Source: Tumidithrix helvetica PCC 7403
GTDB lineage: Bacteria; Cyanobacteriota; Cyanobacteriia; Pseudanabaenales; Pseudanabaenaceae
Direction of reading: 5' to 3'
Length of the DNA: 64,000 nt
NCBI RefSeq assembly: GCF_965232925.1
Contig: NZ_CBDDRA010000001.1
Coordinates: forward strand, 64,001 to 128,000
In this document: piece by piece, positions 4,444 through 40,703 of the stretch
Numbering within the stretch: position 1 is the stretch's first letter
How the letters are laid out: the number at the start of each line of letters is the position of its first letter
Translations under genes and position numbers: made by a program
Notes under the pieces: model-generated
Databases searched by the model: none
Seen by the model: the letters and a program-made list of their open reading frames with translations, nothing else
Told to the model about the DNA's origin: nothing

Positions 4444-5280
4444 ATGAAAATCTCTGAGTGCTACAACTGTGGATCGAGGCAACATACCTTCTATGCTGAA
4501 GAGAACGGCTTCTCATTAGTGAAGTGCGACCAATGCGGGCTCTTGTTTGTTGAGAATCGTCCAGACGATCGTGAAATCTCTCAAGCGCACAAACAAGGGA
4601 AGCATGTTGGCGTCAAGGAATTTGATGTGACGGGTAGGTTCAGACCGAGCAAAATCCCCCAATATCTTAAGGTGCTGGAGAATCTATTCAAAGGAGATTT
4701 AGGCAGTAAAAAAACATGGCTGGATATTGGTTGCGGACATGGAGAATTTATGACAGCCGTTCAAAAATATAGTTCTGGGAAAGTTACCGTAAAAGGAACG
4801 GAGCCGAACGTCCACAAACAAGAATCGGCAATAAGCCGAGGTTTAAATGTCAGCTATTTCGACATAGAGTCGCACGAAGAAAGATACGATGTCATCTCCA
4901 TGTTAAACGTATATTCCCACCTTCCCGATCCACCTACGTTTCTAAGGTCGGTGAAAAAATTATTAAACCCAGGAGGAGAACTCATTTTAGAGACAGGAGA
5001 TGCGGCAGGTTTCTCAGCAAACGATCAACCTCGTCCCTTCTGCCTACCCGATCATTTGAGTTTCGCATCTGAAGATATCTTGATAGGAATTTTGGCGCGA
5101 CTGGACTTTGAGATTCTTAGAATCAATAAGTACTCTTTTATGCAATTTGATTTAAACAGTATGGCTAGAGAACTTGTCAAAGCTATTTTGCCCCAATATA
5201 AATCCAGAATAGGATACTACTTGAAGTGGAAAATGTACGCTCAGACAGATATGTTCATTAGAGCAAGAATAAAAAGCTGA
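4444..5280 (+). CDS. Class I SAM-dependent methyltransferase with N-terminal Zn-ribbon
   Basis: CxxC...CxxC in CYNCG...CDQCG; SAM motif I LDIGCGHG; motif post-I and ILETGD. Confidence 0.8.
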   Translation: MKISECYNCGSRQHTFYAEENGFSLVKCDQCGLLFVENRPDDREISQAHKQGKHVGVKEFDVTGRFRPSKIPQYLKVLENLFKGDLGSKKTWLDIGCGHGEFMTAVQKYSSGKVTVKGTEPNVHKQESAISRGLNVSYFDIESHEERYDVISMLNVYSHLPDPPTFLRSVKKLLNPGGELILETGDAAGFSANDQPRPFCLPDHLSFASEDILIGILARLDFEILRINKYSFMQFDLNSMARELVKAILPQYKSRIGYYLKWKMYAQTDMFIRARIKS

Positions 5281-5403
5281 AATTGGTATAAATCATCTTG
5301 TATGCGCGATAGCCTTTCTCTCGCTACAAAGCAACTTCCCATAGGGTAGGGAAGCACTCCACAAATAGATGGGCTTGGTCTTTTTATGCCGAACTCAGGG
5401 TAG

Positions 5404-7572
5404 TTAATTTTTCCCAGAGACATTTAGCCTAGAAGACTGCAACTGACCGATCTGTTGCTGTACTTGAGGTGCATAGATGCGCAAGTAATTCCAATAGTTG
5501 CTAAATACCCGTTCCACATACCCTCTGGTTTCCTCATAGGGAATGTTATTGACGAACTCATCAGGATCGCCTAGTCCCCGACTTTCTACCCATCGCCCGA
5601 TCGCCCCAGGTCCCGCATTATAACTAGCTACCGCCAGCATGGAATTATTGCCGTTGCGCTGGTGGGTATAGTCCAAATACCAAGTACCAAAATTGATATT
5701 GTCTTCAGGGTTGCTGAGCGAATAGCCCTTTACACCCTTCTTACTAGCAATCCATTCACCCGTATCAGGCATAATCTGCATCAAGCCTACTGCCCCCGAT
5801 CGCGAAAGAATCTGTGCTTCAAACCGCGATTCTTGCCGCATTAGACCCAATACTAACGCAGGAGGAAGTCTTCGTTCCTGCGACCAATTTGCGACTTGAT
5901 TCCAATAGGGGAAAGGATAGAGGCTCTGCCAATAGATCGGCTGTTGCTGCAAAATTTTAATTTCGGCGCGTTCGGCAGCACTGACATCGATCGTATCAAG
6001 GCTCTCTAACTTACGAATACCCTGAAGGTTGTCATTCACCCCAACCCGAATTACACCATCCGTAAAGATTTCCCTTGGGGTCAAGCTGCGTTTGCCTCTC
6101 GTCTCAAACTGCCAGCGATCGCTGGCATCCTGATTCATCCCCAAGATATATAGTTCTTGGAACTGCGCTGAGCCTGCGGGTAAGCCCGTGCGAATGCTAG
6201 GGAGGCTGAGTGGAAGATTGATATTTCGAGCCGTGGTAAAGTCTCCCACTTGCCAGCCTAAATAACTTGCCGATCGCCAAGCGAAATAAGAATCTGGGTG
6301 CTTGCGAATGGCAAATTCAAACAACTGTCGCGAAGCGTTGCGATCGCTGATGCGAGTTGCCCATTTTCCACCCCAAAAACTTGCTTCTGCCGCGATCGCA
6401 CTGTCGGGAGCATTATTCGTTAAAATCTGAACGGAAGCGATCGCCTGCTTGAGATTCCCCGCATTGGCATGACCTTTGGCAATGCGCCAGTAGATCTCTC
6501 CTGCTTCGTTGGTGTTGGGAAAGCGACTTAACAAGAGATTTCTCGCCACACTCGCCGCCTGCGGACTGCCCAGTTTATCTTGCAGCAAATCGGCTTTTTC
6601 GATCAGCGCTTCTGCTGCCGTATCGGGATAGCTTGCCACAATCCGATCTGCAACAGTCACCGCTTGACTGGGGTCAGCAATTTGCATAATCCGAATTAAA
6701 GCTCTTGGTGCTTCAGGACTTTGAGCATATTGCTGGGCGACGCGATTGTAAGCTCCTAGAGCTGCATCAATTTGTTTGCCGCGATGCAAACTACGTCCAA
6801 TACGATAAGCCGTAAAAGAGTTGGGTGTGGCTCTCAGATAGGCGTTGGCTGATTTTTGAAATTCAAAATTGTCGTAATAGGCATCTGCCACCGCCCACCA
6901 CTGATCTGGAGTTAGCCTTGCCCCACTATCGACGAGGCGATTGAGCAAAGGTACGATCTGCTTATAGTCATTGAAATAGAATGCCAAGTGAACCATTAGA
7001 TCGGTACGCTGAGGATTTTGACTTAAGCCTGACAGCGCTACACTGAGCGATCGCGGGTGAGAAGGAAATTTTTGTAATAGCTGTTGTGTTTGCCCCGTCA
7101 CAAACAGGGCTTCTGCGGCTACGGGACTATTGGCATAGTTGGTAAGAATCTGATTCCAAACGGCTTTGGCAGCATTACCATCTCTGGCTTGGGTAAATGC
7201 TTGCGCCCGTTTGAGCAGGACATATTCGGCTAATAGAGGATATTCTTTTTCTAAGCCTTCGAGGGCTGCGATCGCGGCACGAGGATTTTTATTGTCTAGG
7301 TAAAGATTGGCTAGGGTCAAGCGCGATCGGCTCCGCTCTAAGCTTGCCTCATTTGCCTTGGCTTTGAGTTCTAATTGCGCAATGCGTTGGTTGTAGGGTA
7401 AAAAGGTTAACGGGTCAAAGGGTTTGACATTGCCAAAATTGGTTAAACCTGTGGCACTGGCAGAGGCGTTGGGATTTAGCTCAGAGTTTAGATTTGTGGG
7501 TAAGGGGGCACTAGATCCTGCTAGTGTGGCACTTAGAGCGATCGCAATTGACCAATTCATGAATTTTTTCAT
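5404..7572 (-). CDS. Soluble lytic murein transglycosylase (TPR-like superhelical domain plus SLT catalytic domain)
   Basis: C-terminal LMRQESRFEAQILSRSGAVGLMQIMPDTG...SYNAGPG motifs. The likely start is MKKFMNWSIAIALSATLAGS at 7572 (signal peptide); the ORF track extends to 7611. Confidence 0.85.
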   Translation of the reverse strand: MKKFMNWSIAIALSATLAGSSAPLPTNLNSELNPNASASATGLTNFGNVKPFDPLTFLPYNQRIAQLELKAKANEASLERSRSRLTLANLYLDNKNPRAAIAALEGLEKEYPLLAEYVLLKRAQAFTQARDGNAAKAVWNQILTNYANSPVAAEALFVTGQTQQLLQKFPSHPRSLSVALSGLSQNPQRTDLMVHLAFYFNDYKQIVPLLNRLVDSGARLTPDQWWAVADAYYDNFEFQKSANAYLRATPNSFTAYRIGRSLHRGKQIDAALGAYNRVAQQYAQSPEAPRALIRIMQIADPSQAVTVADRIVASYPDTAAEALIEKADLLQDKLGSPQAASVARNLLLSRFPNTNEAGEIYWRIAKGHANAGNLKQAIASVQILTNNAPDSAIAAEASFWGGKWATRISDRNASRQLFEFAIRKHPDSYFAWRSASYLGWQVGDFTTARNINLPLSLPSIRTGLPAGSAQFQELYILGMNQDASDRWQFETRGKRSLTPREIFTDGVIRVGVNDNLQGIRKLESLDTIDVSAAERAEIKILQQQPIYWQSLYPFPYWNQVANWSQERRLPPALVLGLMRQESRFEAQILSRSGAVGLMQIMPDTGEWIASKKGVKGYSLSNPEDNINFGTWYLDYTHQRNGNNSMLAVASYNAGPGAIGRWVESRGLGDPDEFVNNIPYEETRGYVERVFSNYWNYLRIYAPQVQQQIGQLQSSRLNVSGKN

Positions 7573-7813
7573 CTCAATCCGTTTGTCTCGTGGGCGATCA
7601 TAGCACCACAATCAAGCCCCTTTATGAAGACTTGACGAATTTCTATGAATTCATCTGCCCCATGTCAATTCGTAGATAAAGCTGTAATTTTTTAAATCCG
7701 AAGTCAAAAATCTCCACGCCTGTATGAAAGCCTCCAGTATTTACGGTTATGCCCTCGCAAGATTCTTAGAGCGCGATTGAGCAGTCCGTGCCCCAGCAAC
7801 TTTTTCGAAACAC

Positions 7814-8233
7814 TCAATCCAAATCAGTAATGCTGGCTCTTAAGGCTTTAATTTCGCCACGCTTGGTTTTACGATCGAGCCGTCTGCTTTGAGCGCCGCG
7901 TGAGGGCTTGGTAGGTTTACGCTTTGTTGGCAAGATCGTCACACTTTGAATCAAGAGCTGGAGGCGTTTTAAGGCATCTTCTTTATTTTGTTCTTGGGTA
8001 CGGTGCTGTTGGGCCTTAATGATAATCACGCCATCTTTTGTGATGCGGCGATCGCTTAAATTCAACAGTCGTTCCTTGTAGATCGGCGATAGGGAGGATG
8101 CGTTGATATCGAAGCGCAAATGAATTGCCGTAGCGACCTTATTCACATTTTGACCGCCTGCCCCCTGCGATCGGATGGCGCTAATACTAATTTCCTCGAT
8201 CGCGAGGGCGGTGTTTTTGGTGATTTGGAGCAT
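7814..8233 (-). CDS. arfB: Alternative ribosome-rescue factor ArfB (peptidyl-tRNA hydrolase, GGQ family)
   Basis: 139 aa; GGQ motif in SQGAGGQNVNK; basic C-terminal tail. Confidence 0.85.
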   Translation of the reverse strand: MLQITKNTALAIEEISISAIRSQGAGGQNVNKVATAIHLRFDINASSLSPIYKERLLNLSDRRITKDGVIIIKAQQHRTQEQNKEDALKRLQLLIQSVTILPTKRKPTKPSRGAQSRRLDRKTKRGEIKALRASITDLD

Positions 8234-9231
8234 TAGGGTGCGCTGTCCTTGACATGCTCTTCCCAGCGACGGGGCGGCGAACTGCGGCGAATGTCTCGCC
8301 AGATGCCCGTTGCAGCTAATGTGCCATCTGCCACGGCGATCGATATTTGATTGAGACCTTGTTTAAGATCGCCAAGGGCAAAAATTCTTGGATGAGAAGT
8401 ACGACACATCTCGTCAGTGACTAAATTCTCGCCACTGCGCTTGAGATCGATCTCTTTGAGATAGCCATTATGATAATGCGATCCCATTGCCACCAGACCC
8501 GTCTCTAATTCAAGCTCTGAGCCATCGACAAAACGCACACCTGTCATGTTGTGGTCATGTCCCAAAAATTTGGCGATCGGCTGTTCGTAGAGTGGATAGC
8601 CATGTTCGGCAAGCTTCGCACGCATTTCGGCTCCGACTTCGCAAGTGCCGTGGGTAATCACGCTGATATAGGGGGTGAACCAGTTGAGCACAAAGGCTGT
8701 ATTGATCGCAGCTTCAGAGCCAACAAATAGACCGCACCGTTTATCGCCAATTTCATAGCCATCGCAAATCATACAGACGTGAAGGTTATAGCCTGCATAG
8801 TCATAGACATTTTGCATGTCTTCTAACTGGGGCAATTTATCAATAATGCCACTCGCCGCTACAACATACTTGGTACGAAACGTAGCATATTCACTATTTT
8901 CTTTGCCAATTTTAACTTTGACGGCAAAGGTTTCACCCTCGTCAGTAACTTCTTCGACAAAGCCCCGTAAATAGTCACCGTCAAGTTCTAGAAAGCGATC
9001 TTGCCCGTCTTTTAGTAAGTCTCGCCCAGAGGTGTCATGGGACAGTCCCAAATAATTCGTCAGATTCTGCATCCAAAAAGAACGACCTTTACCTTTCTCG
9101 ATCACGAGGCAAGAAAGACGGTAACGCGCCAGATAAAGCGCTGCTGATAAGCCTCCTGCCCCACCACCAACAACGATCGCGTCATAGATGCGATCGAGCC
9201 TTTGTGACAGATTCTTTTTCGCAAGTTTCAT
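8233..9231 (-). CDS. FAD/NAD(P)-dependent oxidoreductase, thioredoxin-reductase-like fold
   Basis: N-terminal GGGAGG dinucleotide-binding motif; 332 aa. Its stop overlaps the arfB start by 1 nt, which suggests translational coupling. Confidence 0.75.
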   Translation of the reverse strand: MKLAKKNLSQRLDRIYDAIVVGGGAGGLSAALYLARYRLSCLVIEKGKGRSFWMQNLTNYLGLSHDTSGRDLLKDGQDRFLELDGDYLRGFVEEVTDEGETFAVKVKIGKENSEYATFRTKYVVAASGIIDKLPQLEDMQNVYDYAGYNLHVCMICDGYEIGDKRCGLFVGSEAAINTAFVLNWFTPYISVITHGTCEVGAEMRAKLAEHGYPLYEQPIAKFLGHDHNMTGVRFVDGSELELETGLVAMGSHYHNGYLKEIDLKRSGENLVTDEMCRTSHPRIFALGDLKQGLNQISIAVADGTLAATGIWRDIRRSSPPRRWEEHVKDSAP

Positions 9232-9375
9232 AGTAATTCTATAGCTGAGAAAAATTTTTCGTTGACAAGATATTTTCTGGGAGTTGACTGATAAGAATCT
9301 TTATAGGATCGATATTTTGCCTGACATGGAAGCAAATACGGCGATTCCACAGAATTGACAATTGATTAAGGATTG

Positions 9376-9629
9376 CTAAATAAACGTGAATTCGGGATAA
9401 GAACATCTAAAATTTCTGATCTAGTAGTCGATTTTTCTGATCTCTTCATAATTCCAAATCCGCCTAGATAAATCCTTCCTAATTTATCTAGATAATCAGG
9501 GCAGCACGCACCATCCACTGCCCCTACGAAAATTGGGTAGGGGCGATGGATGGTGTGTGCTTGCCCTGCTCCCTTATATAACCAATATTTTGTCTCAAAA
9601 TCTTTATCCCAAATTCACGTTAAATAAAG
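9376..9629. mobile_element. MITE-like non-coding element bounded by imperfect ~23-bp terminal inverted repeats, with internal palindromes
   Basis: CTAAATAAACGTGAATTCGGGAT at 9376-9398 pairs with ATCCCAAATTCACGTTAAATAAAG at 9606-9629 (about 18/23 complementary). Inside are the CTAGATAAAT...ATTTATCTAG palindrome (9464-9491) and a ~31-bp-arm hairpin (9497-9568). No ORF. Confidence 0.35.
9497..9568. repeat. Long imperfect hairpin with a CCCCTAC / GTAGGGG core
   Basis: Left arm CAGGGCAGCACGCACCATCCACTGCCCCTAC, loop GAAAATTGG, right arm GTAGGGGCGATGGATGGTGTGTGCTTGCCCTG. The arms are complementary with about 3 mismatches or indels. Confidence 0.6.
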
Positions 9630-9732
9630 GTAAAAGACTATTGAGAATTATTATGGCTTAACTCAGATTTTGCCGATATCTTTCTTAAGCTCTAAATTGC
9701 CCCCTATTACCTAGTCTACAGATAGGTCTTTT

Positions 9733-9759
9733 AATCAAAAAGCCTGCATAGGCAGGCTT
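9733..9759 (-). terminator. Rho-independent terminator of the rpsI ribosomal-protein operon
   Basis: On the minus strand: AAGCCTGC-CTAT-GCAGGCTT followed by TTTTGATTAA, 37 nt after the rpsI stop. Perfect 8-bp GC-rich stem plus a U-tract. Confidence 0.8.
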
Positions 9760-9795
9760 CTGAAGCTTTTGTGTAATTTGCTAAAGCAAACAAGA

Positions 9796-10209
9796 TTAAC
9801 GCTTTGAGTATTGAGGCGCTTTGCGGGCTTTGCGCAAACCGTATTTTTTCCGTTCTTTAGCGCGGGGATCGCGGGTAAGGTAGCCTTCTGTTTTGAGAGG
9901 CTTGCGATTCTCAGGGGCTAACTCACATAGGGCACGAGCAACACCTAACCGAATCGCATCTGCCTGTCCAGTAACCCCACCACCATGAATATTGACCAGA
10001 ATGTCATACTCATTTTCTAGACCCAAAGTTTCTAGGGGAGCTTTTACACCAGCAATATAGCTGGGGTTAAATTGCAAATAGAGATCGCCTGGTTTGTCAT
10101 TGATCGTAATGCTGCCACTACCTGGCACCAAACGAACTCTGGCAACAGCGGTCTTACGACGACCTGTGCCCCAGTAAACCGCGCGATTAGATTGATCGGT
10201 AGCTTGCAT
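9796..10209 (-). CDS. rpsI: 30S ribosomal protein S9
   Basis: 137 aa; [10 protein letters not shown] and the C-terminal [18 protein letters not shown]. Confidence 0.95.
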
Positions 10210-28258: not shown

Positions 28259-29182
28259 TCAATAGGCTGTGACGATCTCTAAAAGCTCGGCGGTGATCGC
28301 AGTTTGACGCTCTTGTTGATAGGCAATCGTAAATTCTGCAATGCGTTCCTCAATATTCTTCTCAGCAATTTGCATGGAGGCGAGGCGGCTGGCATTTTCG
28401 CTGGCGAGGGACTCGACAAAGGCGCGATAGAGAGAGATAAAGAAATATTGTCGCAATAGCGAAGCGAATAGCCGATCGCTGGACATGGTAAACGTGGGCA
28501 GCGATCGCGATTGCCATGTCTGTTGTGCGATCGTTTGCAACCATTGCCGATCGAGGGGCAAGAGTTGTAGTTTGCTGGGTTCGCTAAAGGTACTGGCATG
28601 GAGGCGGTTGTAAAACAGCAGGATGCGATCGATCCGATCGCGATCGCGCCAAGTTTCGATTTGAATCAACATTTCCTGTACCATCGGCGTAATCCCTACG
28701 AGGGAACTGGGCATCTCGAAGGTTTGGGCGATCGCAAAACCCGCAGTTTCTAAGGGAGGAATAATCCTTGTGCCTACGGTAAATATGGACAGGCGATCGG
28801 CTGCGATCTCTGTATGTTGAATTTCCGCGATCGCATAACGGGCAATCTGTTCGTTAAATTGTCCGCACATTCCCTGTTCCGAACCAAAGACAATCGCACC
28901 GCAGCGTTTGCTAGAAACTTGAGTCAGGGCGAAAGGCGTACTTTTAAGAGGTTCGCCGTTATTGCCATGCATGCCATTCGCTTGGATAAATCCCTGGGGA
29001 TGCATGGTTTTGAGAACGACATACAATCCCTTTTCGATGGTTTGGGTATATTCGCTCAGGGATGCCACCGCTTGCTCGTATTGATGGATATTGACTGCTG
29101 CCAGCACCTTCATCATTTTGACGACCGATCGCAGGTCGGTAGCCGTATGAATTTGGCGTTGCAGCGATTGAATGGAGGTCAT
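28259..29182 (-). CDS. atpG: N-ATPase (F-type) subunit gamma
   Basis: 307 aa; N-terminal [29 protein letters not shown] and a C-terminal coiled-coil helix. Last gene of the operon; its start overlaps atpA by 4 nt. Confidence 0.85.
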
Positions 29183-30723
29183 GGAGTTCCTCCTGTTTCT
29201 GAATTATGATTTGAATTACTGAGGCGATCGCGGACAACCCGCAACAGAGATGCGCGATCGCTTGCACTCAGAGCTTCACCCCGTTCGATCCGATCGCAGA
29301 GATCGGGTAATTGGGCTGCGACTGCTTGGGCGATCGCAGTTTCACACGCGCTAATTTGACCGATCGGAATGGCATCGAGCAACCCTTCGGTAACGGCAAG
29401 CAGAATAGCGATTTGGGTGGCGACGGGCATAGGCTTGTACTGCGGTTGTTTGAGTACTTCGCGCACGCGCCGCCCCCGTTCTAAGGCAAGGCGGGTCGAT
29501 TCTTCTAGGCGCGTACCAAAGCGCGAGAAAGCTTCGAGTTCTTCAAATTGCGAATAGGAGAGCCGTAATGCCCCTGCAACCGAACGATAGGCGGGTAGCT
29601 GGGTTTTACCACCGACACGGGAAACGGATTTGCCCACATCGATCGCGGGCAATACGCCTTTTTGAAATAGCCCAGGCGATAGGTAAATCTGTCCGTCCGT
29701 AATCGAAATCAGGTTGGTGGGAATATAGGCAGCCATGTTTTGGGCTTCGGTTTCCAAGATTGGCAGTGCAGTGAGCGAACCACCACCGAGATTGGGATGG
29801 AGATGGGTGGAGCGTTCTAGCAGGCGGGAGTGAATGTAGAAAATATCCCCAGGAAAGGCTTCGCGACCGGGGGGACGGCGCAACAGCAGCGAGAGTTCGC
29901 GATAGGCACGGGCATGGGTGGTGAGGTCGTCGTAAATAATCAGAACATCGCGCCCCTGTTCCATAAAGTATTCTGCCATGGTCGTTGCGGCATAGGGCGC
30001 GACGAACTGCAATCCGGGCGGTTCTTCACCCGCAGCCATGACAACGGTGGTATAGTCCATCGCGCCGTATTCTTCCAAATCCGCAATTAGTTTAGCAACG
30101 GCGGTGCTGCGCTGTCCGATCGCGCAATACATGCAGAGAACATTTTTGTCTTTTTGATTGACGATCGTATCGATCGCAAGGGCACTTTTTCCTGTTTGGC
30201 GATCGCCCAAAATCAATTCCCGCTGTCCGCGCCCGATCGGAATGAGGGCATCGATCGCCTTGATTCCCGTTTGCAGAGGCACATTCACAGGAGCGCGATC
30301 CATAATTGCAGGGGCATTGCGTTCGGCAGGACGACGCTGGGAAGTACGGATCGCGCCTTTGCCATCGAGGGGACGACCGAGGGGATCGATCACCCGTCCG
30401 AGAATCGTATCGCCCACGGGAACTTCTAAAACCTTGCCCGTGCGCCGTACCTCGAAGCCTGCCCTGAGGCGATCGCTGGCATCGAGCAGAATAATGCCGA
30501 CTTCATCGGGGTCGAGGTTAAACACCATGCCCAGAGTGCCACCTGCAAAGCGAACGATTTCTTCTGATTCCACATGGGGCAATCCCGTCACTTTGGCAAT
30601 GCCCTGTCCGATCGACTGCACGATGCCGATTTCCTGCGATCGCAGGTCGGGGGGATGGGCGTTGAGTACGCGATCGTAAAGGGAGAGTGTCTCGTTGAAA
30701 ATGGTTTGCAAGAGATTATCCAT
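29179..30723 (-). CDS. atpA: N-ATPase subunit alpha
   Basis: 514 aa; Walker A GDRQTGKS; alpha signature regions. Confidence 0.9.
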
Positions 30724-31627
30724 GCGCTGGCTCTACTCCTTCTGCATTAATTCCCTCGCTAATTTCTTCGCCTATTTCTTCACTGATTTCTTCGCCTATT
30801 TCTTCAACCAGAACAGAAGCTAAATTCTCTGCGATCGCATCGAGATAGGCTTCAATACTCCAAGTCAGTTTGTAGCCCCTGCCGCGCAGTTCGATACCAC
30901 AAATTAAATCGGGTTGGGTTTCGCAGTCCAAATCTAGATCGCCTAAATTCGCTGCATTCAAGTAATTCTGTAAGACCTGCGCGATCGCAGTGCGAATTGA
31001 TTCGGGCAATTCAAAGGCACTCACTAGGGTAAGGGCAATACTGCTCTGTTGCTCGGTTTGGGTTAAGGCAGTCACTAAGCCAATGCGATCGCGATCGGCA
31101 AGATTTTGCAAGCGTTGTAGGAATACCTTGGCGACCTGTGCCTCTAGGGTGACTTCTGCCAGATCCTTAAGCACCAACTGTACGGTTGCCTGTAACTGCT
31201 GCATCGTGCGATGGCGCACCTCCTGCAAAAACGCTTCTTTCTGTCGGCGCAGGCTTGCCTGCCACTGCGATCGCTCTACTGCCGCCGCATCGCGCACTTC
31301 CTGTAACAGCCTTTGGCGGGTTTGCTCGACCTCTGCCTGTGCTTGGGTGAGTAATTCCGCTTGTCTTGCCGCTAAGTCTGCTTGCATCTGTTGGTAATGG
31401 GCGACCTCCTGCTGTGCCTCCTGCTGCTTCTGCTCGGCGGAGTTTAAGCGATCGCGAATTGTTTGTTCGCGGCGTTCCATCGCTTTGACGATCGGCTTGT
31501 AAAGTAAGCGTTGCAGCACAAATACCAAAACAAAAAAGTTAACAATTTGCGCCGTAAAGGTAACCCAGTTAATTTCCACGCTTGTTACCCCCCTACTTTC
31601 GTAACGGCAGAAATCACGTAATTCCAA
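30716..31627 (-). CDS. atpF: N-ATPase subunit b, unusually long (303 aa), with a C-terminal extension and an EEIGEEIS tandem repeat
   Basis: Single N-terminal TM ([18 protein letters not shown]), a long coiled coil, then a roughly 120-aa C-terminal region. A GTG at 31579 preceded by AGGGGGG is an alternative start that would remove the 43-nt overlap with atpE. Confidence 0.75.
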
Positions 31628-31902
31628 AAGGGATTTGCAAAAATCAGGATCAGCGAGATCACAAAACAGTAAATCGCCACCGATTCGATAAAGGCAAGCC
31701 CCACAAACAGCGTGCGCGTAATCGTGTTGGCTTCGTCGGGTTGTTGGGCGATTGCGTTCAGGGCTTGGGCGATCGCTTTTCCTTCACCGAGGGCGGGTGC
31801 GATCGAGCCAATGGCAATGGTCAACCCCGCCGTTAAAATCGAAATCGTTCCCACAATCCAAACAGCCATAAAAATGGGATTGTTACTATCAAGATGCGTC
31901 AT
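31585..31902 (-). CDS. atpE: N-ATPase c subunit (proteolipid)
   Basis: Two-helix hairpin ...GEGKAIAQALNAIAQQPDEA...[28 protein letters not shown]. The start may be the internal ATG at 31869 (MAVWIVG...). Confidence 0.8.
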   Translation of the reverse strand: MTHLDSNNPIFMAVWIVGTISILTAGLTIAIGSIAPALGEGKAIAQALNAIAQQPDEANTITRTLFVGLAFIESVAIYCFVISLILIFANPFWNYVISAVTKVGG

Positions 31903-31993
31903 AATGCCCTTCCTTATTTGAGTCTAACCGTTTTAGATTTTGGATGCAGTAGAAAAAGAAGTAATTCCTTACAGTCTCCCCTCTGTCTGGGAA

Positions 31994-32659
31994 TCAATCC
32001 CCATGACTTGCCGAGCCGATGTATACCAATGCCAAAATCGCAAAGATATAGGCTTGAATGATCCCAGTGATTAAGCCCAGAAGCTGCATGATCGCAGGAA
32101 AGAAAAAAGGTGCGATCGCCAGTAATAGGGCGGCAATCATGCTTTCGCTCATGACGTTCCCGAATAGGCGAACGGCTAGGGCTAGGGTGCGAGAGAGTTC
32201 GCTAATAATGTGAAAAGGCAGCATAATCGGACTGGGTTTCAGGTATTGGCGCAGGTAATTCCCCAGCCCCTGTTGGCGAATCCCGAAAACAGGGACGGCA
32301 AAAAACACGCAAATAGCAAGAGCAGCCGTGGTGGAAAGCGATCCCGTGGGTGGGTGATAGAAAGGTACGATCGCCAGTAAATTCGACGTGGCAATGAAAA
32401 TAAACAGGGTTCCAATAAAGGGAAGATAGCGATCGGGTTCTTTGCCGCTGGTTTGACGAATTTGTTCTCGAACCGTACTCACCAAAACTTCTAAAAAATT
32501 TTGCCAGTGGCCGATTTCGACATCGCTAGAAAGCTTGCGCGTAATCGACCAAGAGCAGATTCCCAAAAGCAAAATAATTGCCCAAGTGAAGACCAACGTC
32601 GCATTGAGCGCGACATTCCCCCATTGCCAAAACACAATTGAATCGGGACTAATGTGCAT
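31994..32659 (-). CDS. atpB: N-ATPase a subunit
   Basis: 221 aa, 5-6 TM; the essential Arg in LSRTLALAVRLFGNVMS. Confidence 0.85.
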   Translation of the reverse strand: MHISPDSIVFWQWGNVALNATLVFTWAIILLLGICSWSITRKLSSDVEIGHWQNFLEVLVSTVREQIRQTSGKEPDRYLPFIGTLFIFIATSNLLAIVPFYHPPTGSLSTTAALAICVFFAVPVFGIRQQGLGNYLRQYLKPSPIMLPFHIISELSRTLALAVRLFGNVMSESMIAALLLAIAPFFFPAIMQLLGLITGIIQAYIFAILALVYIGSASHGD

Positions 32660-32959
32660 TTATCCTCCTCGTTTTGGTGCGATCGGTTGGAGTCGCTCGA
32701 TCGTACGATTGCGAATCCAAAAAAACATGCCCAAACAAGCGATTAAATGCAGGGGCGCATAGTCTTTGACGCAGAAAAGCAACAGAGAAAATCCCGCCAA
32801 CACAATCCCTAACCTTCCGAAAAAACTGCCTAGAGCTAAGAGGACGGGGGCGCGGGCTTTGGGCAATTTTCGCACCGTCACCCACAATCCACCAAAATAG
32901 ACCGTGCCTAGCACAGCACCTAAAATTAGCGTCAAGGGTAGAAAGAACAAACTAATCAT
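32660..32959 (-). CDS. atpR: N-ATPase accessory membrane subunit AtpR
   Basis: 99 aa, three TM helices with a conserved membrane Arg (WVTVRKLP). It sits between atpQ and atpB, as in N-atp operons. Confidence 0.65.
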   Translation of the reverse strand: MISLFFLPLTLILGAVLGTVYFGGLWVTVRKLPKARAPVLLALGSFFGRLGIVLAGFSLLLFCVKDYAPLHLIACLGMFFWIRNRTIERLQPIAPKRGG

Positions 32960-33362
32960 GTTTGACCTCCGTTTCAGAATTAGATTCGGGCTCGGAATCG
33001 GGCTCGGGCTCGGTTAATCGGTCTAGGGGAGCTTGCGATCGCACCATGCGCTCTTGCTCTTGGGCAACCCACTGCCAAGCCACCAAGCAACCCAGCGTCA
33101 AGCCGCCCAACATCAGTGCCAAAGTCCAAGACATCTGACTGGGAAACTGGCGATCGATCCACATGCCCAGCGCCATGCCTAAGAGCGTGGGCGCGACTAC
33201 CGACCAACCGACCAAACCTGCAAAACCCAGACCAAACCAAACGCCCCCAAAGGGTTGGGTTTGACGGGCGTGTAATTTGCGCTGTTCCTTGGTGGCGATC
33301 GCTTCCGTAAAGACATGGGCAGGCGATCGGGCTTTGCGCCGCGAAGATTGAGGGGATTTCAT
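32952..33362 (-). CDS. atpQ: N-ATPase accessory subunit AtpQ (AtpZ/AtpI-like, ATPase gene-1 family)
   Basis: 136 aa; the FGGVWFGLGFAGLVGWSVVAPTLLGMALGMWIDRQFP...WTLALMLGGLTLGCLVAWQWV two-TM core typical of the AtpZ/AtpI family. I chose this frame over the overlapping 32980..33372 ORF. Confidence 0.65.
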   Translation of the reverse strand: MKSPQSSRRKARSPAHVFTEAIATKEQRKLHARQTQPFGGVWFGLGFAGLVGWSVVAPTLLGMALGMWIDRQFPSQMSWTLALMLGGLTLGCLVAWQWVAQEQERMVRSQAPLDRLTEPEPDSEPESNSETEVKHD

Positions 33363-33748
33363 AAAAATTCACCTAACTCGATAAAACGTCGAATCGTGCT
33401 GATTTCGAGTTTTGCCAATACCGATCGCGCTGTTTTTTCGCGATCGCTGAAAGCCCGAAATTGTTGGGCGATCGTTTGTCGCAACATTCCTAGATCCTCC
33501 CCCTTAGCCGCGTGTTGGGTCGAAATTGTAACGGTATCTTCTTGTTTAATTAAAATTCCTTCATCAACTGCCCAAAACTGTTCTTTTCCTTCCTCGGGAA
33601 TAAACGAAAGCAAACTCGGTACCAGTATCGCTACAAAGTCCACATGGCGCGGCAGCAGACAAAACGAACCATTCTCGGCTTCGGCAACGACTTTGCTGAC
33701 TTCCGTTTCCAGCAAAATCTTGGTAGGTAAGATAATTTTGAGCAGCAT
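33359..33748 (-). CDS. atpC: N-ATPase subunit epsilon
   Basis: 129 aa; N-terminal beta-sandwich (LKIILPTKILLETEVSKV) and a C-terminal helical hairpin. Confidence 0.8.
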   Translation of the reverse strand: MLLKIILPTKILLETEVSKVVAEAENGSFCLLPRHVDFVAILVPSLLSFIPEEGKEQFWAVDEGILIKQEDTVTISTQHAAKGEDLGMLRQTIAQQFRAFSDREKTARSVLAKLEISTIRRFIELGEFL

Positions 33749-33759
33749 GACACACCACT

Positions 33760-35166
<1,407 letters not shown>

Positions 35167-35474
35167 TTAGTAGCTCAGTACTCCTAGAGAATCGTAGCGA
35201 AGTTGTCGTTAGGAAACAGAGAGATTGAACTGATTATACAAGCCTTCTCAAATATTTACTGGAATAAAAAACCAGCAAAGAGAAGGGGAACGATTAAAAC
35301 CATTACGGCAATAAAAAGAATCGTGCCAGCACTCACTTCTTCCGTTTCCTTAGCTTTGTTTTGCGGTTTTCTCATAATGCACCTGCACAGCTAATCGATA
35401 CCTTGATTTTACCTTAATCTCAGCCTCACCTCTCCTTAAAGTTCCTTCGCATTGAGAATTGTAAACTTGGCTGT

Positions 35475-36137
35475 TCATAACACGATTAGTTTGCGCCGCA
35501 CGGCTTCCATGCAGAGGGCAACGCGGGTACTGGTATTGTTTTCATCGAGATAATCGATTCCCAGTTTTGCCTTTAGCCGTTGAATGGAATTTTGAGCGGT
35601 TTTTAAGGAAATGTTCATGCGTTGAGCGATCGCTTTGTCTGTGAGCGCTTCCCGCCCCAATAGGTTTAGAACTTCTGTCTCGCGTTCGTCTAGATCGATA
35701 TCGTGGCGCAGTTCTCTGGGAATCTCTAGTTTGCCCTCTAGGGCATGTTTGACCCCCTCTAAATAGGCTTTGCGACGTTCGAGTTTGCTGACCACAACAA
35801 ATCCGCCTTTGTGGCGACCGAGCAATTTACTCAGCGGTTTTAAATATCTGTACTCGCTGGTATAAATCAGAACATTCAACATCGGGTAGCCCTGAAAAAT
35901 CTGGCGCAACAGTTCTAAACAGGGTTGCGCCGATTGTTCGCCCGTCGATGTCCCAAATAGCAAATCGACAATAATTAGGTCGGGGATCTCTAGCTTGAGT
36001 CGTTCTAGAGCCTCAGCAGGCGCGTGAGCTATCTCACATATCGCTTCTGGATGAAGTTTTTGTAAAAATAGGCAGTTGTTTTGAGCGACTTCGGGATGAT
36101 CTTCGAGAATTAAAAATAGAGGTGGTCGAGAATCCAT
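35475..36137 (-). CDS. Response regulator, NarL/FixJ family (REC plus LuxR-type HTH)
   Basis: 220 aa; receiver Asp in DLIIVDLLFG; C-terminal LuxR HTH ETEVLNLLGREALTDKAIAQRMNISLKTAQNSIQRLKAKLG. Confidence 0.85.
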   Translation of the reverse strand: MDSRPPLFLILEDHPEVAQNNCLFLQKLHPEAICEIAHAPAEALERLKLEIPDLIIVDLLFGTSTGEQSAQPCLELLRQIFQGYPMLNVLIYTSEYRYLKPLSKLLGRHKGGFVVVSKLERRKAYLEGVKHALEGKLEIPRELRHDIDLDERETEVLNLLGREALTDKAIAQRMNISLKTAQNSIQRLKAKLGIDYLDENNTSTRVALCMEAVRRKLIVL

Positions 36138-36251
36138 AACCTCCCAGCCAAATTGGAATTAGGTATTTATCATAATCCTAAAAGATATCTAAAGAGAAGC
36201 TTGTTTTTGCATAAATTTACAGTTACATAGTTCAAAACGACTAAATTTCGA

Positions 36252-38168
36252 TTAATTAAAGGCAATTTCCCAAGAAAGCTGCACTCTTAAGCCCCCCTCT
36301 TGTAAGGCGACGCATTCAAATAAGCCATCGGGTAGCTCTGTCGCGATCGTTGCCATAAATTTCATCCCATAGCCTCCCTGCATTCTCAAATTTGTCGGGC
36401 TCTCAAAGGTTGCGGGATCAAGTTGTGAACCATCATTCTCGATCGCCAGCGAACAATACCTATCTTGCTGACTCAGAATCACCTTAACCTGCGTAGCCTT
36501 GCCATGGGGTGGTTGAGCGTGGATCGTGACATTGGTAATCGCCTCAATAAAAAAACGATAAATATCCTCGCGGGCTGCTAGCCAGAGGCTATTGAGTTCG
36601 GGTTCGTCGAGGGGTTGGATGTCTTGAATGACGCTGAGGGTGAGTTCTCTAGAATTGATGAGTTGGTACAGTTTCGCTTCTATGCCAGCAGCCAATCCTG
36701 CTTTCAATTTGGGCGTGAGTTGCAGCGCGATCGCACGAGTTTGATTTAACTGCTGGCGCAGGTGCTGCCCCATGCTTGCCAAGCGATCTAGAATGGGGTC
36801 GAGTTTGGATGCCGTTCCGTTTACTTGCAACATTTCTAGGCGATCCATCACGAGTTTTAGTTCTTGGAGCGGCCCTTGGTGAATATTGGCGGCGAGGCGA
36901 TGCAGCGTTTTTTGGGCTTGTGCGAGAATTGCTGCTTGTTCGATATTGTGTAGGCGATCGATTTCGCACTGTTGCTGGTAGATCAGATCTTTTTGGATGC
37001 CCAAGCGTAAGGAAATAAATACAGATATTGCGGTTGCACCCCAAACGCAGAGGGGAAAGGGTACGGGTAGAATCCAGCCTTGACTAAATAGCAGCAGCCC
37101 GAGTAGACCAAACCCACCCAGCCCAAAGATTGGACTGAGCCAATAGCGGTATCGTCTTCTCAAATTCCTGCTCAGTTTTCCATAGATAATCCATGCAGCG
37201 ATCGCGACGCCACCCCAAACAATGAGAGCATTTTGAATCCATAATGGCACGATGCGATAAAAAGAGTTGGTCAGCAAACTTGCCAGCAGATTGGCTTGCA
37301 GCTCGACCGCAGGCATGAGTTCGCCAAACGGCGATCGAATTGCAAAGGCATCGGGGTTAGAAGTATCTGTAAAGCCGATCGAGACAATTTTATTGCGAAC
37401 CTGTGCCAGCAATGGACTATTGCTTAAAATCGATTCCGCCTTGAGTCTAGGGAAGGTTCCCGTCGCTCCCCAGAAACGGATCTGAATGGGGGATGGGGAA
37501 GGAAACTGCTCTCGAACTTGGGGATTGAATTTCTTGAGGCTGAGTAGAGCGGCGGAGTCGAGTGTTTCTGGGCGATCTAGATTATGGGAGAGCGTGAATT
37601 CTCCTGACAAATTTGCCTGACGCGCTGTGCTTTTAGAACCAAAGGGATGTTTGGCTTCTGGCTCGAATTCGGAAAATCCTACAATCGATCTGGGCGAAAA
37701 TAGAGGGTTCCCTCGATCGGTTGAGGGAAGAAAGTATTCGTAACTTCGCCATTCTATGGGATTTGACTGACTGGCACTGGAAGTGGGAATGACAACGACG
37801 ATCCGAGAGGTATTTTCTTGAACTAAGGTTTTGATGGGATGATTAGCATGATCTGAGGTCTGCACCCAGTTGGGCATTAGGTTAAGAACGACGACCGATG
37901 CATCTGCGTCGAGAATCCGCTTGACTAATGAGGTATAAACTATCGGCTCTTTGTCTAGTCCCCAACTTCTCAAGTCAGAATCGGTAATGGGGACGAGCAA
38001 AATCTCTGGGGGAGGCGTGCTGGGATGGCTCAGATAGATAAGGCGATCCTGTAGAGACAGGTCGAGTTGTTGAATGACAGGAAGATCGAAGAGAATTAGA
38101 CTCCACAAAAGGCTCCAGCCTATTCCCAGCCAGAGGGCAGTGCGTTGCCATGCTTTACGGAGTGTCAT
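36252..38168 (-). CDS. CHASE2-domain sensor histidine kinase (HisKA_3/HATPase_c)
   Basis: 638 aa; N-terminal TM plus a CHASE2-like extracytoplasmic domain, three further TM helices, an H-box ANIHQGPLQELK (NarX/LiaS type) and a C-terminal HATPase_c. Confidence 0.8.
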   Translation of the reverse strand: MTLRKAWQRTALWLGIGWSLLWSLILFDLPVIQQLDLSLQDRLIYLSHPSTPPPEILLVPITDSDLRSWGLDKEPIVYTSLVKRILDADASVVVLNLMPNWVQTSDHANHPIKTLVQENTSRIVVVIPTSSASQSNPIEWRSYEYFLPSTDRGNPLFSPRSIVGFSEFEPEAKHPFGSKSTARQANLSGEFTLSHNLDRPETLDSAALLSLKKFNPQVREQFPSPSPIQIRFWGATGTFPRLKAESILSNSPLLAQVRNKIVSIGFTDTSNPDAFAIRSPFGELMPAVELQANLLASLLTNSFYRIVPLWIQNALIVWGGVAIAAWIIYGKLSRNLRRRYRYWLSPIFGLGGFGLLGLLLFSQGWILPVPFPLCVWGATAISVFISLRLGIQKDLIYQQQCEIDRLHNIEQAAILAQAQKTLHRLAANIHQGPLQELKLVMDRLEMLQVNGTASKLDPILDRLASMGQHLRQQLNQTRAIALQLTPKLKAGLAAGIEAKLYQLINSRELTLSVIQDIQPLDEPELNSLWLAAREDIYRFFIEAITNVTIHAQPPHGKATQVKVILSQQDRYCSLAIENDGSQLDPATFESPTNLRMQGGYGMKFMATIATELPDGLFECVALQEGGLRVQLSWEIAFN

Positions 38169-38237: not shown

Positions 38238-40703
38238 CTACGGCTTCTCAAAGATTACTCCCCATCCTGTACCTTTTCCATCAACTTCCCATCGAGGTCC
38301 CCAATTTTTCTTGCTGTAAAGCATATAGCGTCCATCTTCGTTAGATGTATAGCCACCATTGACTAAATCTGCTTCACCATAGGGATCCATGAAATAATAT
38401 GCGTTTCTATCTGCTTTGCACCCAACAACTAGGCACCAGTGACCACCCGTAGGACTATCAACAGAACCATGATGATTCCATCCAACTGCTATGGGGAACC
38501 CTTGTGCAAGTTGCTCATCTAGATCTTTAAAACTCAGGTCTTGTCTATAATGGGCAGTAATTCCATAGCTTTTTAGGGCTTCAACTTGTGCAGTAGGTTC
38601 AGTTGTATCCCCATATTTGAGAACAGTTGCTAGGTATGTATCATCAGCATTTTCCCCACTTAATGCTTCGGGTCGTAAATACTTTAATGCCATAGCACAG
38701 GTACTTGAAAAGCACATGCGCTGGGCATTGGGAGTTGTAGAATCTAATTGGCTATAGTACTGTACATTTAGTTTGATTTCCCGATTAAGATCAGCATTAT
38801 CTCTAGCATTTTCTTGTAGAGGCTTCGGGGATGTGCCTTCTAATTTACTTAGACCTTGCTGCCAAAGATCGCCTTCTGCACTTCGCCTCCTCCTCAAGCC
38901 TTCTTCTACATTAGAGCCAGGATTAACATACAGCATGAGTGCTTTGGGTACATAATGCCATCGCTTATCTCTTAGACAAGCTGTAATTGTATGGAAGCCA
39001 TCATCGCCATAAAAATACGCTCCTAGATTATAGGCAAAACTGCACAAAGCAGAACGCATATCATCATGCATCTCATTCCAGTAGGGGATCTTTTTTTGGA
39101 GGATATCCCAAAAGTTTTTCTCAAGATTAATGGCAAGGTATTCATCTGCTTCCACTTGAGAAATACAATCGTTCTTTCCAACTTTTTTCCCATCAGGATA
39201 GACTGTAGTCCCCCAACCAATTGTCCAAGGTTCGCCGTTAGTTTTAGGATCTGGATAAGCAGATAGTTCGCAACCTTCAAATTCTTTAATGAGCTTAACT
39301 GCTTGCAAGGGCACACCGCTTACCCTTTTAGTAGCTTCGGCTGAGACTTGAGGCAACTTGGGCGTTACTTCCTTAAGATTTTCAGTAGTTGGTATAGTCA
39401 GAGTAAGAACACTGGTTATCGCGGCATCTGACTGCTGAGATGAGTTGGTGATTGAGGATTGCTGTGCAGAAGGAGTTAGTTGTATCAACGGACTTGGGAA
39501 TATACTATTGAGTAAGGCTAAAGCCTTACTTTGCTGTCTAAGCCAGTCCTGATTTTGGGTGAGCCAATCTTTTATAGGAATCTCTACCCCATCGCTCTCA
39601 TACTCTCTAAGAGTCTTTTCTAGTCCTTTATTGTGGTCAACAGCAACTAAGTCCCGCAAAATTTCTTCCCTTCCTTGAGAAGCCCTATTTGTGTTCTCTC
39701 CTGCTTGTTTGGCAAGTTTGATTCTAGCGATCGCTCTGTAAAGTTCGTATTTCCAAGAATCTTCTCTGATCGATGAACCTCGAAGTTCAATTGCGCGATC
39801 GAGGTTGGAGATAGCATCTGCTAAAAGGGGAGGTTCTGACTCAATATAGGCATAAACTAGCTGAGCCAGATAATCAGGTTGATTGTCATCACTCTCTACA
39901 AGAGCTTTAAAAATAGGAATAGTCCTCTGACTCCGAAGTCTAAATGCAGAAGCTTTAGAGCGCTGAGCCGCTCGACGAGCATCGCTGGCACGGTAAAAAA
40001 TAAGTTCTTTGTCTTCAAGATCGGCTTTTTGAATTTTCTTTTGGAGATCTGATAACTCAGGCTCAGTCAGTCCGTTTTGAATTTGGCGATTGACAAGCAC
40101 AAGTAGATCCTTTCCTTCGGCTATTTGCTCTTTCTCTGCGTTAGCTTGCTTAGCATCTCTTTGGGCTAAATCAGCTCGCTCAATCAGTTCAAGTTGCTTT
40201 TTGAGTAACGCATTTAGGATGAGTTGACCACCGTAGCCGCCAACCAGTCCGGTCACAAAGACTTTAATTCCGCTGTTAATGCCACTTAGGTATTCAGTTG
40301 GTACAAAAACATAGGCAATAAATGCACCGCTTATGCCAATGAAGATTTCTCCCAAAAATCCAGGCTTAAGACCAGTGTCATCTTCACTCCAAGAAGGTAA
40401 ATCTAACTGACCATGTATCAAGATAGTGTGAAGAATTGCTCCCAGTGTTCCTGCTAGTGTGAGACTTAGATAGAGAGGATTTGCCTTGTTTAGCCATCCT
40501 AATAAATATGGCATACCTGAAACAGCATCTTCCGATGGATTTGTATGGCTGATAAGCTTGGCGAAGCCCAAAGCCATGAAAATCCCCAAACTAAACATCA
40601 AAATAAAATACAAAAATCTTAAGAGTCTTGGGAAAAATCTACGTCTCGTTCCGTTCATAAATTTAGGTTCCACTAGTTGGAAAGTTAGTGTGTTCGCAGA
40701 CAC
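38238..40703 (-). CDS. Multidomain membrane-anchored cell-wall hydrolase: four N-terminal TM helices, a long coiled-coil/helical linker, a GH24 phage-type lysozyme domain and a C-terminal C39-like cysteine peptidase domain
   Basis: 821 aa. TM helices at roughly residues 25-175. Lysozyme motif LIKEFEGCELSAYPDPKTNGEPWTIGWGTTVYP. C-terminal Cys/His pair in MCFSSTCAMALKYL ... GGHWCLVVGC. Confidence 0.7.
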   Translation of the reverse strand: MSANTLTFQLVEPKFMNGTRRRFFPRLLRFLYFILMFSLGIFMALGFAKLISHTNPSEDAVSGMPYLLGWLNKANPLYLSLTLAGTLGAILHTILIHGQLDLPSWSEDDTGLKPGFLGEIFIGISGAFIAYVFVPTEYLSGINSGIKVFVTGLVGGYGGQLILNALLKKQLELIERADLAQRDAKQANAEKEQIAEGKDLLVLVNRQIQNGLTEPELSDLQKKIQKADLEDKELIFYRASDARRAAQRSKASAFRLRSQRTIPIFKALVESDDNQPDYLAQLVYAYIESEPPLLADAISNLDRAIELRGSSIREDSWKYELYRAIARIKLAKQAGENTNRASQGREEILRDLVAVDHNKGLEKTLREYESDGVEIPIKDWLTQNQDWLRQQSKALALLNSIFPSPLIQLTPSAQQSSITNSSQQSDAAITSVLTLTIPTTENLKEVTPKLPQVSAEATKRVSGVPLQAVKLIKEFEGCELSAYPDPKTNGEPWTIGWGTTVYPDGKKVGKNDCISQVEADEYLAINLEKNFWDILQKKIPYWNEMHDDMRSALCSFAYNLGAYFYGDDGFHTITACLRDKRWHYVPKALMLYVNPGSNVEEGLRRRRSAEGDLWQQGLSKLEGTSPKPLQENARDNADLNREIKLNVQYYSQLDSTTPNAQRMCFSSTCAMALKYLRPEALSGENADDTYLATVLKYGDTTEPTAQVEALKSYGITAHYRQDLSFKDLDEQLAQGFPIAVGWNHHGSVDSPTGGHWCLVVGCKADRNAYYFMDPYGEADLVNGGYTSNEDGRYMLYSKKNWGPRWEVDGKGTGWGVIFEKP

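Follow-up and report, generated by a model that had tools for sequence, protein, structure and literature searches.

Two-component systems of the HisKA_3/NarL kind, such as NarX-NarL, DesK-DesR, VraS-VraR, DevS-DevR and MctS-MctR, combine a histidine kinase that carries an H-DxxxQ box and an N-box of the E-A-x-x-N-V-x-x-H-A type with an adjacently encoded regulator made of a receiver and a LuxR/GerE helix-turn-helix, and their sensors are diverse, with P-box and HAMP regions in NarX, a five-transmembrane (TM) thermosensor in DesK and an intramembrane sensor in VraS. Here, we analysed a divergent pair of this kind that is found in a 64,000-nucleotide (nt) stretch of the Tumidithrix helvetica PCC 7403 genome (the window, to whose full length all positions refer), where a CHASE2 kinase gene and a NarL-type regulator gene lie directly upstream of an N-ATPase (N-atp) operon. 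A previous sequence-only reading had proposed that this pair is a dedicated regulator of the N-ATPase operon. Judged by gene neighbourhoods in related genomes, such a link is refuted as a conserved system, and we estimate, with a probability of about three in four, that a functional, trans-acting two-component system sits beside a laterally mobile N-atp operon by chance, as a juxtaposition specific to this genome.

The window pair resembles the systems above by the phospho-accepting His and the xxxQ part of the H-DxxxQ box, by its N-box, by the receiver and LuxR/GerE domains of its regulator and by the adjacency of its two genes. It differs from them in that both proteins are very divergent and score below the Pfam thresholds for HisKA_3 and Response_reg, in that Gln replaces the Asp of H-DxxxQ, in that the receiver, with its extended beta3-alpha3 loop, bears the signature EDHPEVAQNN ... 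HxGGFVVVSK, and in that a CHASE2 domain, preceded by one TM segment and followed by three, serves as the sensor. The pair is thus a divergent two-component system of the NarX-NarL/DesK-DesR/VraS-VraR type with a CHASE2 input. CHASE2 sensors are found on kinases, cyclases, GGDEF proteins and Ser/Thr kinases, and the window kinase has the same layout as these, with an N-terminal TM segment, an extracytoplasmic domain of about 270 amino acids (aa), three TM segments and a cytoplasmic output. To our knowledge, the ligand is known for none of them. The CHASE2 papers that we found are surveys or concern c-di-GMP enzymes rather than the window kinase family, on which our literature search gave no relevant paper.

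Operons for N-ATPases are described as highly mobile laterally, with insertions into diverse gene neighbourhoods and in some cases on plasmids (Dibrova et al. 2010, PMC2881411). Those on pAQ7 of Picosynechococcus PCC 7002 and on pREB4 of Acaryochloris marina have the canonical atpDCQRBEFAG order with AtpR and AtpQ, all of which the window operon shares. It differs from them by having a two-component system upstream, where the two plasmid operons have none and are preceded by phosphonate-transport genes and ppsA, and by being apparently not plasmid-borne, since the housekeeping genes coaD and coaE follow it downstream. A literature search for any regulator of N-ATPase operons returned no paper.

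The pair and N-ATPase operons in other genomes

The locus occupies 28-41 kb of the window on the minus strand, with genes in the order 821-aa lysozyme-like protein, kinase, regulator, nine atp genes, coaD-like gene and coaE. The kinase is encoded by an open reading frame (ORF) of 638 aa at 36252-38168 and the regulator (220 aa) by 35475-36137; 114 nt (36138-36251) separate these two genes and 323 nt (35152-35474) separate the regulator gene from atpD. These coordinates, both spacings and the shared strand agree with what had been read initially, and genes called independently on an identical public contig were the same set.

The nine genes at 28259-35151 (atpD-C-Q-R-B-E-F-A-G, minus strand) encode the N-ATPase-specific subunits AtpR (PF12966, E = 1.5e-16) and AtpQ (PF09527, E = 7e-13), and the NCBIfam "alternate F1F0" models for the beta, epsilon, a and c subunits (TIGR03305, TIGR03166, TIGR03306 and TIGR03322) all score above their cutoffs; these profile matches confirm a complete N-ATPase operon with the order atpDCQRBEFAG. 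Its AtpD is 75% identical to that of pAQ7 and 69-70% identical to that of pREB4, and its closest relatives are at most 80% identical. Na+-binding c subunits have a helix-1 Glu and ESTxxY in helix 2 as their ligand set (PMC2881411). In the c subunit encoded by atpE (31585-31902, minus strand), the helix-1 Glu is present (GEG) but helix 2 reads ESVAIY instead of the typical ESTxxY, with Val replacing Thr, so that the specificity of this N-ATPase for Na+ or H+ is uncertain. Since N-atp transcripts of Picosynechococcus PCC 7002 do not rise at high salinity (PMC3468840), the assumption of a Na+ cue is uncertain as well.

The sequence-only reading implied that the pair would recur next to N-atp operons, which we examined from both sides. 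For the first survey, one genome per species (GTDB) was scanned with the regulator alignment and 80 cyanobacterial loci were kept with flanks of up to 10 kb, at least 1.5 kb being available downstream of the regulator gene in 73 loci and at least 5 kb in 58. ATP-synthase genes were found within these flanks in none of the 80 loci, even at E < 0.01. The reverse survey covered 80 metagenomic loci, chosen as the closest to the window by AtpD (67-80% identity). All of them are true N-atp operons, in which atpC/Q/R/B follow downstream, and at least 2.5 kb of upstream sequence was available in 52: an orthologue of the regulator or of the kinase was present in none. Together with the pAQ7 and pREB4 operons, which also lack the pair, these surveys show no such pair beside N-atp genes in related genomes, and the regulatory interpretation is therefore refuted as a conserved system by the very test that the sequence-only reading had named. 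The arrangement of the window was seen in just one other contig, identical in sequence and assembled from a public read set, and its restriction to this genome fits the behaviour of N-atp operons as laterally mobile cassettes (PMC2881411).

The genes that surround the pair elsewhere are varied. In Tumidithrix elongata, where the regulator is 96% and the kinase 91% identical at the aa level, nucleotide similarity (90.7%) covers 38169-35459 of the window only and so extends beyond the two genes by 1 base at the kinase start codon and by 16 bases at the regulator stop codon; a convergent GNAT acetyltransferase gene and then Germane, GH3, NUDIX and LRR genes follow the regulator gene. The insertion site of the N-atp operon could not be defined from this comparison, both flanks of the module being different. 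The regulator gene is followed by a methyltransferase gene in Pseudanabaena PCC 6802, by a K+ channel gene in Stanieria NIES-3757 and by a gene for a dCache-GGDEF protein in Oscillatoriaceae Prado104. In Gloeothece PCC 7424 no kinase gene accompanies the regulator gene, and in Tolypothrix PCC 7101 the kinase gene is divergent; both loci have no N-atp operon nearby. Just two neighbours of the regulator gene recur: the kinase gene and, in distant branches, a gene for a ~120-aa secreted protein. A candidate regulon from guilt-by-association was rejected, as the co-directional downstream genes of 27 loci belong to 38 unrelated Pfam families, none of which is found in more than three loci. Likewise, conserved synteny beyond the modules was sought by comparing window ORFs of at least 100 aa with 165 loci using tblastn: the kinase and regulator genes or the atp genes were shared, and nothing else. 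Plasmid-borne copies of the regulator were not found either, the best plasmid match being 31% identical.

The 323-nt gap upstream of atpD (35152-35474) was then the place where a site for the regulator would be expected according to the initial reading. Repeat finding for LuxR-type inverted repeats gave only short, widely spaced arms, and one palindrome (7-nt arms, at most one mismatch, 0-10 nt spacing) was observed compared to 5.7 +/- 3.4 in shuffled sequences; nothing beyond chance was thus detected, in what is a weak test. The closest clade (regulator identity 77-96%; intergenic alignment of 9 loci) shares an element upstream of the regulator gene, TTTTAGGAyTAnGATAAAT, which in the window lies between the kinase and regulator genes (TTTTAGGATTATGATAAAT, ~36183-36165). 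Its form TTTTAGGAYTANGAT occurs once in the window region, at ~36183, with no copy in the atpD upstream region, and it probably corresponds to the -10 region of the regulator's own promoter. Footprinting of upstream regions was therefore dismissed as a source of a binding motif for the regulator: the only shared element, found in the closest clade (at least 77% identity), is -10-like and does not recur before atpD.

In the same gap, no sigma-70-type promoter with both hexamers was found and no intrinsic terminator was predicted, and the RNA fold is no better than that of shuffled sequences (z = 0.24). By eye, an extended -10-like sequence, TGTATAAT, can be recognised at 35240-35233, some 80 nt before atpD begins, which makes a plausible independent promoter for the N-atp operon. 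The gap had been described as 323 nt of non-coding DNA: its length is correct, but an ORF of 39 aa (MRKPQNKAKETEEVSAGTILFIAVMVLIVPLLFAGFLFQ) with one hydrophobic segment lies inside it (35256-35375, minus strand) and was also called by an independent gene caller. Whether this ORF is a real gene is uncertain. A Shine-Dalgarno-like sequence was not found in front of it and no homologue was detectable near other N-atp or regulator loci. Its candidacy as a conserved small N-ATPase subunit was rejected, with a homologue upstream of atpD in 0 of 80 loci, and a weak match in locus L087 lies within the membrane-spanning part of a Ser/Thr kinase.

The CHASE2 kinase and its NarL-type regulator

Among the 80 regulator loci, a kinase orthologue is encoded within 10 kb of the regulator gene in 49. 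It is immediately upstream on the same strand in 26 loci (median gap 111 nt), convergent with the regulator gene in 12 (median gap 49 nt) and divergent from it, 2-6 kb away, in 10, whereas 23 other loci, in which both flanks span 3 kb or more, have no kinase gene near the regulator gene; these mostly come from hot-spring Synechococcus/Thermostichus and their relatives. Since the linkage persists through three different arrangements, the two proteins are best regarded as partners. The ratios of nonsynonymous to synonymous substitutions (dN/dS) relative to T. elongata are 0.15 for the kinase and 0.04 for the regulator (dS 0.29-0.40), showing that both genes are under purifying selection and are therefore not remnants. 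These comparisons support a functional cognate two-component system, as had been proposed for a HisKA_3-like kinase and a NarL-type regulator, between which phosphotransfer would take place.

The sensor part of the kinase was also predicted correctly at first. CHASE2 (Pfam PF05226) matches residues 23-329 with E = 3e-20 and 73.3 bits for a cutoff of 26.3. Hydropathy analysis places a first TM segment at about aa 11-32 and three more at about aa 306-332, 343-362 and 366-391, and the one segment before and the three segments after CHASE2 indicate that the domain (about aa 33-305) is extracytoplasmic.

The initial reading also gave the kinase a HisKA_3 H-box. The sequence HQGPLQELK is indeed present and its His430 (codon 36879-36881), in the cytoplasmic dimerisation and phosphotransfer region, is invariant in the 19 kinase orthologues aligned (35-91% identity), but the Pfam HisKA_3 model (PF07730) matches the kinase with E = 0.23 and 12.5 bits only, below its cutoff of 24. 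Other matches point to the same type: the family consensus at this position is IHDGPLQELKLVMD (IHDGPLQELK), which is an H-DxxxQ box of the HisKA_3 type; the NCBIfam MctS model matches residues 404-605 (E = 3e-8); and a profile of the kinase family matches VraS through its ATP-binding domain (E = 3.6e-6) and, weakly, the H-box of DesK/YocF. Because of this H-DxxxQ consensus and of the MctS, VraS and DesK/YocF matches, we accept the kinase as HisKA_3-like, formal Pfam membership being out of reach. Within the H-DxxxQ motif, Gln435 is invariant across the aligned orthologues. Most family members have the Asp, in place of which the window and T. elongata kinases have Gln, Microseira has Ala and two other orthologues have Glu. 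In NarX, this Asp contributes to phosphatase activity, and its replacement suggests that the window clade may have altered phosphatase behaviour.

Further downstream, HATPase_c_2 and HATPase_c (Pfam) match the kinase with E = 1e-5 and E = 0.007. The N-box (EAITNVTIHAQ), the G1 box (IENDG) and the G2 box (GGYGMKFM) correspond to EAIxNVxxHAQ, ENDG and GGYGxK motifs that are conserved in the 19 orthologues, as are residues N546, H550, A551, N578, G601 and G599/Y600; by these motifs, the kinase has an HATPase_c catalytic core with its N, G1 and G2 boxes.

For the regulator, a receiver and a LuxR-type helix-turn-helix had been recognised, and both are borne out. Pfam gives 23.5 bits for Response_reg (cutoff 30.2) and 24.0 bits for GerE (cutoff 23.5), and the best NCBIfam matches are MctR and MadR, as MctS is for the kinase. 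A full-length alignment with DevR/DosR (E = 1e-8) was obtained with a profile of the regulator family, which matches VraR, EvgA, DesR and NarL too; for the helix-turn-helix (about aa 148-195), this profile matches the DNA-binding domains of VraR, DevR, GerE and NarL. E12/D13, the phospho-acceptor D58 (codon 35964-35966), T93/S94 and K118 are invariant or nearly so in the 18 aligned sequences, and the family is marked by the motifs EDHPEVAQNN and HxGGFVVVSK and by a long beta3-alpha3 loop after D58 (FGTSTGEQSAQ in the window). By its residues, the regulator is of the NarL/FixJ type, with a receiver that is divergent yet chemically complete.

The 120 regulator matches listed all have E <= 1e-73 and 56-96% identity, and those with a name are nearly all cyanobacterial. 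The pair belongs to a divergent two-component subfamily found only in cyanobacteria among the matches recovered. The window regulator is 76-80% identical to its orthologues in Pseudanabaena PCC 6802, Microseira, Pleurocapsa, Stanieria and Oscillatoriaceae and only 52-58% similar to those of Nostocales and Thermostichus. Because similarity of 76-80% crosses orders and the homology with T. elongata ends at the gene ends, our comparison suggests that the two-gene kinase-regulator module itself moves between cyanobacterial orders.

Variations of the module were also seen in several loci. In Stanieria NIES-3757 (L169 6547-7902), a DDE transposase gene (an insertion sequence element) is inserted between the kinase and regulator genes, and in Microseira/Phormidiaceae (L009 ~7720-8010, L080 ~9560-9960) a repeat-rich insertion of 250-350 nt lies at this place; these Microseira-like insertions come between the conserved regulator-upstream element and the ribosome-binding region. 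In some genomes of Pseudanabaena and Thermosynechococcaceae (L015 8994-9956, L016 8980-9918, L019 8920-9972, L022 59-1036), the ORF upstream of the regulator gene is just 310-350 aa long, matches the C-terminal half of the kinase only (57-61% identity) and apparently lacks CHASE2. In distant branches (regulator identity at most 58%), the co-transcribed gene of the ~120-aa secreted protein directly precedes that of the CHASE2 kinase in 23 loci (for example L003 8443-8808 on the minus strand, L023 4474-4833, L024 7441-7788, L072 1497-1859, L074, L078 and L081). The protein has a signal peptide and the motifs W-x-G-x-G-R-I and FLSGP, matches no Pfam family, and may be a periplasmic co-sensor; it was found neither in the window nor in its close clade.

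Explanations for the adjacency

Based on the known HisKA_3/NarL chemistry, the extracytoplasmic CHASE2 domain would sense an envelope or periplasmic cue, the kinase would autophosphorylate on His430, the phosphate would move to Asp58 of the regulator, and the LuxR-type helix-turn-helix of the regulator would then bind promoters elsewhere in the genome, in trans. The N-atp operon probably runs from its own promoter in the 323-nt gap (TGTATAAT); like the signalling steps, we infer this promoter and the trans-acting regulon from sequence and precedent. Since the two-gene module and the N-atp operon each occur in many contexts, and together only here, we favour a chance adjacency, and the annotation "N-ATPase regulator" should not be propagated for this pair.

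Several observations weigh against this interpretation. The kinase gene, the regulator gene and the N-atp operon are all on the same strand, and the stretch from the regulator gene to atpD has no predicted intrinsic terminator, so that read-through into the N-atp genes is possible. The absence of a recognisable site in the gap counts as a weak negative. The K+ channel of Stanieria and the N-ATPase of the window make two ion-transport neighbours among the handful of loci detailed, and non-conservation does not disprove a regulatory link that evolved recently.

These observations bear on a lineage-specific capture, which we consider unlikely: the N-atp operon would have landed downstream of the regulator gene and would now be under the control of the CHASE2 system, either through a new site in the gap or by read-through, given that autoregulated two-component operons amplify their own transcription. 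Besides the shared strand, the lack of any predicted terminator or stable hairpin in the gap and the ion-transport neighbour in Stanieria, this explanation is consistent with the presence of the arrangement in two assemblies of the same sequence and with the GC content at third codon positions (GC3), by which the N-atp genes (0.44-0.61) resemble the kinase and regulator genes (0.47-0.50) more than the lysozyme-like gene upstream (0.33). However, the arrangement is in no other surveyed genome or metagenomic locus, the gap has no palindrome or repeat beyond chance and no copy of the regulator-upstream element, its extended -10-like sequence suggests an independent promoter, and 323 nt is long for an operon junction. 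It is accordingly quite doubtful that, in this lineage alone, a laterally acquired N-ATPase operon would be expressed upon the extracytoplasmic signal of the CHASE2 pair, through read-through or a new site. If it were, this would be a case of recent regulatory rewiring, and the pair would be the first regulator of a cyanobacterial N-ATPase that is amenable to experiments.

Another explanation is that the pair is a degenerate or non-signalling remnant with no regulatory role, as could be proposed from the low scores of HisKA_3 (E = 0.23), HATPase_c (E = 0.007) and Response_reg (23.5 bits, under its cutoff) and from HQGPLQ in the window where the family consensus is HDGPLQ. Strong purifying selection on both genes and the invariance of His430, of the N, G1 and G2 boxes and of D13, D58, S94 and K118 across orthologues of 35-96% identity argue against it, making it very improbable. 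Moreover, the low Pfam scores are common to the whole, widely conserved family, and they therefore reflect divergence and not decay. Being well conserved among cyanobacteria and yet below Pfam thresholds, this family is prone to mis-annotation.

That the kinase gene, the regulator gene and the N-atp operon arrived jointly, as one transferred island with built-in regulation, is hardly credible: GC content across 28-38 kb is above that of the immediate flanks, but it is heterogeneous over the whole window (0.385-0.515) and was discarded as evidence for this reason, and the nearest relatives of the pair (T. elongata, 91-96% aa identity; Pseudanabaena and Microseira, 80%) have no N-atp operon while those of the N-atp operon (AtpD at most 80% identical; Picosynechococcus 75%) have no such pair, so that each module has its own history.

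Another two-component system at N-ATPase operons and a neighbouring gene

Clustering the ORFs found upstream of atpD in the metagenomic N-atp loci brought up a different two-component system in another lineage. There, a hybrid PAS HisKA kinase, an NtrC-type AAA+ sigma-54 activator and a protein of about 150 aa, which is often accompanied by a related protein of about 280 aa, are encoded in this order before atpD. The full set is found in six loci (L096 at 4511-10001, L097, L101, L109, L115 and L118), and the gene for the ~150-aa protein in eleven, which are these six plus L099, L106, L107, L110 and L163. Ten of these 11 loci have a sigma-54 consensus promoter (TGGCAY-N5-TTGCT) immediately in front of the ~150-aa gene, and the remaining locus is truncated by its contig end; the background frequency of the motif is 0.015 per kb over 1.76 Mb.

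As in the window, these two-component genes are directly upstream of the N-ATPase operon and on the same strand; unlike in the window, the linkage is conserved, the proteins are unrelated to the window pair, and the window has none of the parts of this system. Since the PAS/NtrC linkage is conserved and accompanied by a sigma-54 promoter in 10 of 11 loci, N-ATPase operons of that lineage are probably under dedicated two-component control, exerted by proteins unrelated to those studied here. Our literature search found no paper linking an N-ATPase with sigma-54 or with a response regulator, and this PAS/NtrC/sigma-54 system is a better starting point than the window pair for studying N-ATPase regulation.

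On the other side of the pair, the phage-lysozyme-like gene (38238-40703, minus strand), which has a homologue in none of the regulator loci, stops 69 nt before the kinase gene begins. Its 821-aa product has a Phage_lysozyme domain (aa 473-610) and a Peptidase_C39_2/C70-like cysteine protease domain (aa 645-775), and its GC3 is 0.33, compared to 0.50 for the kinase gene.

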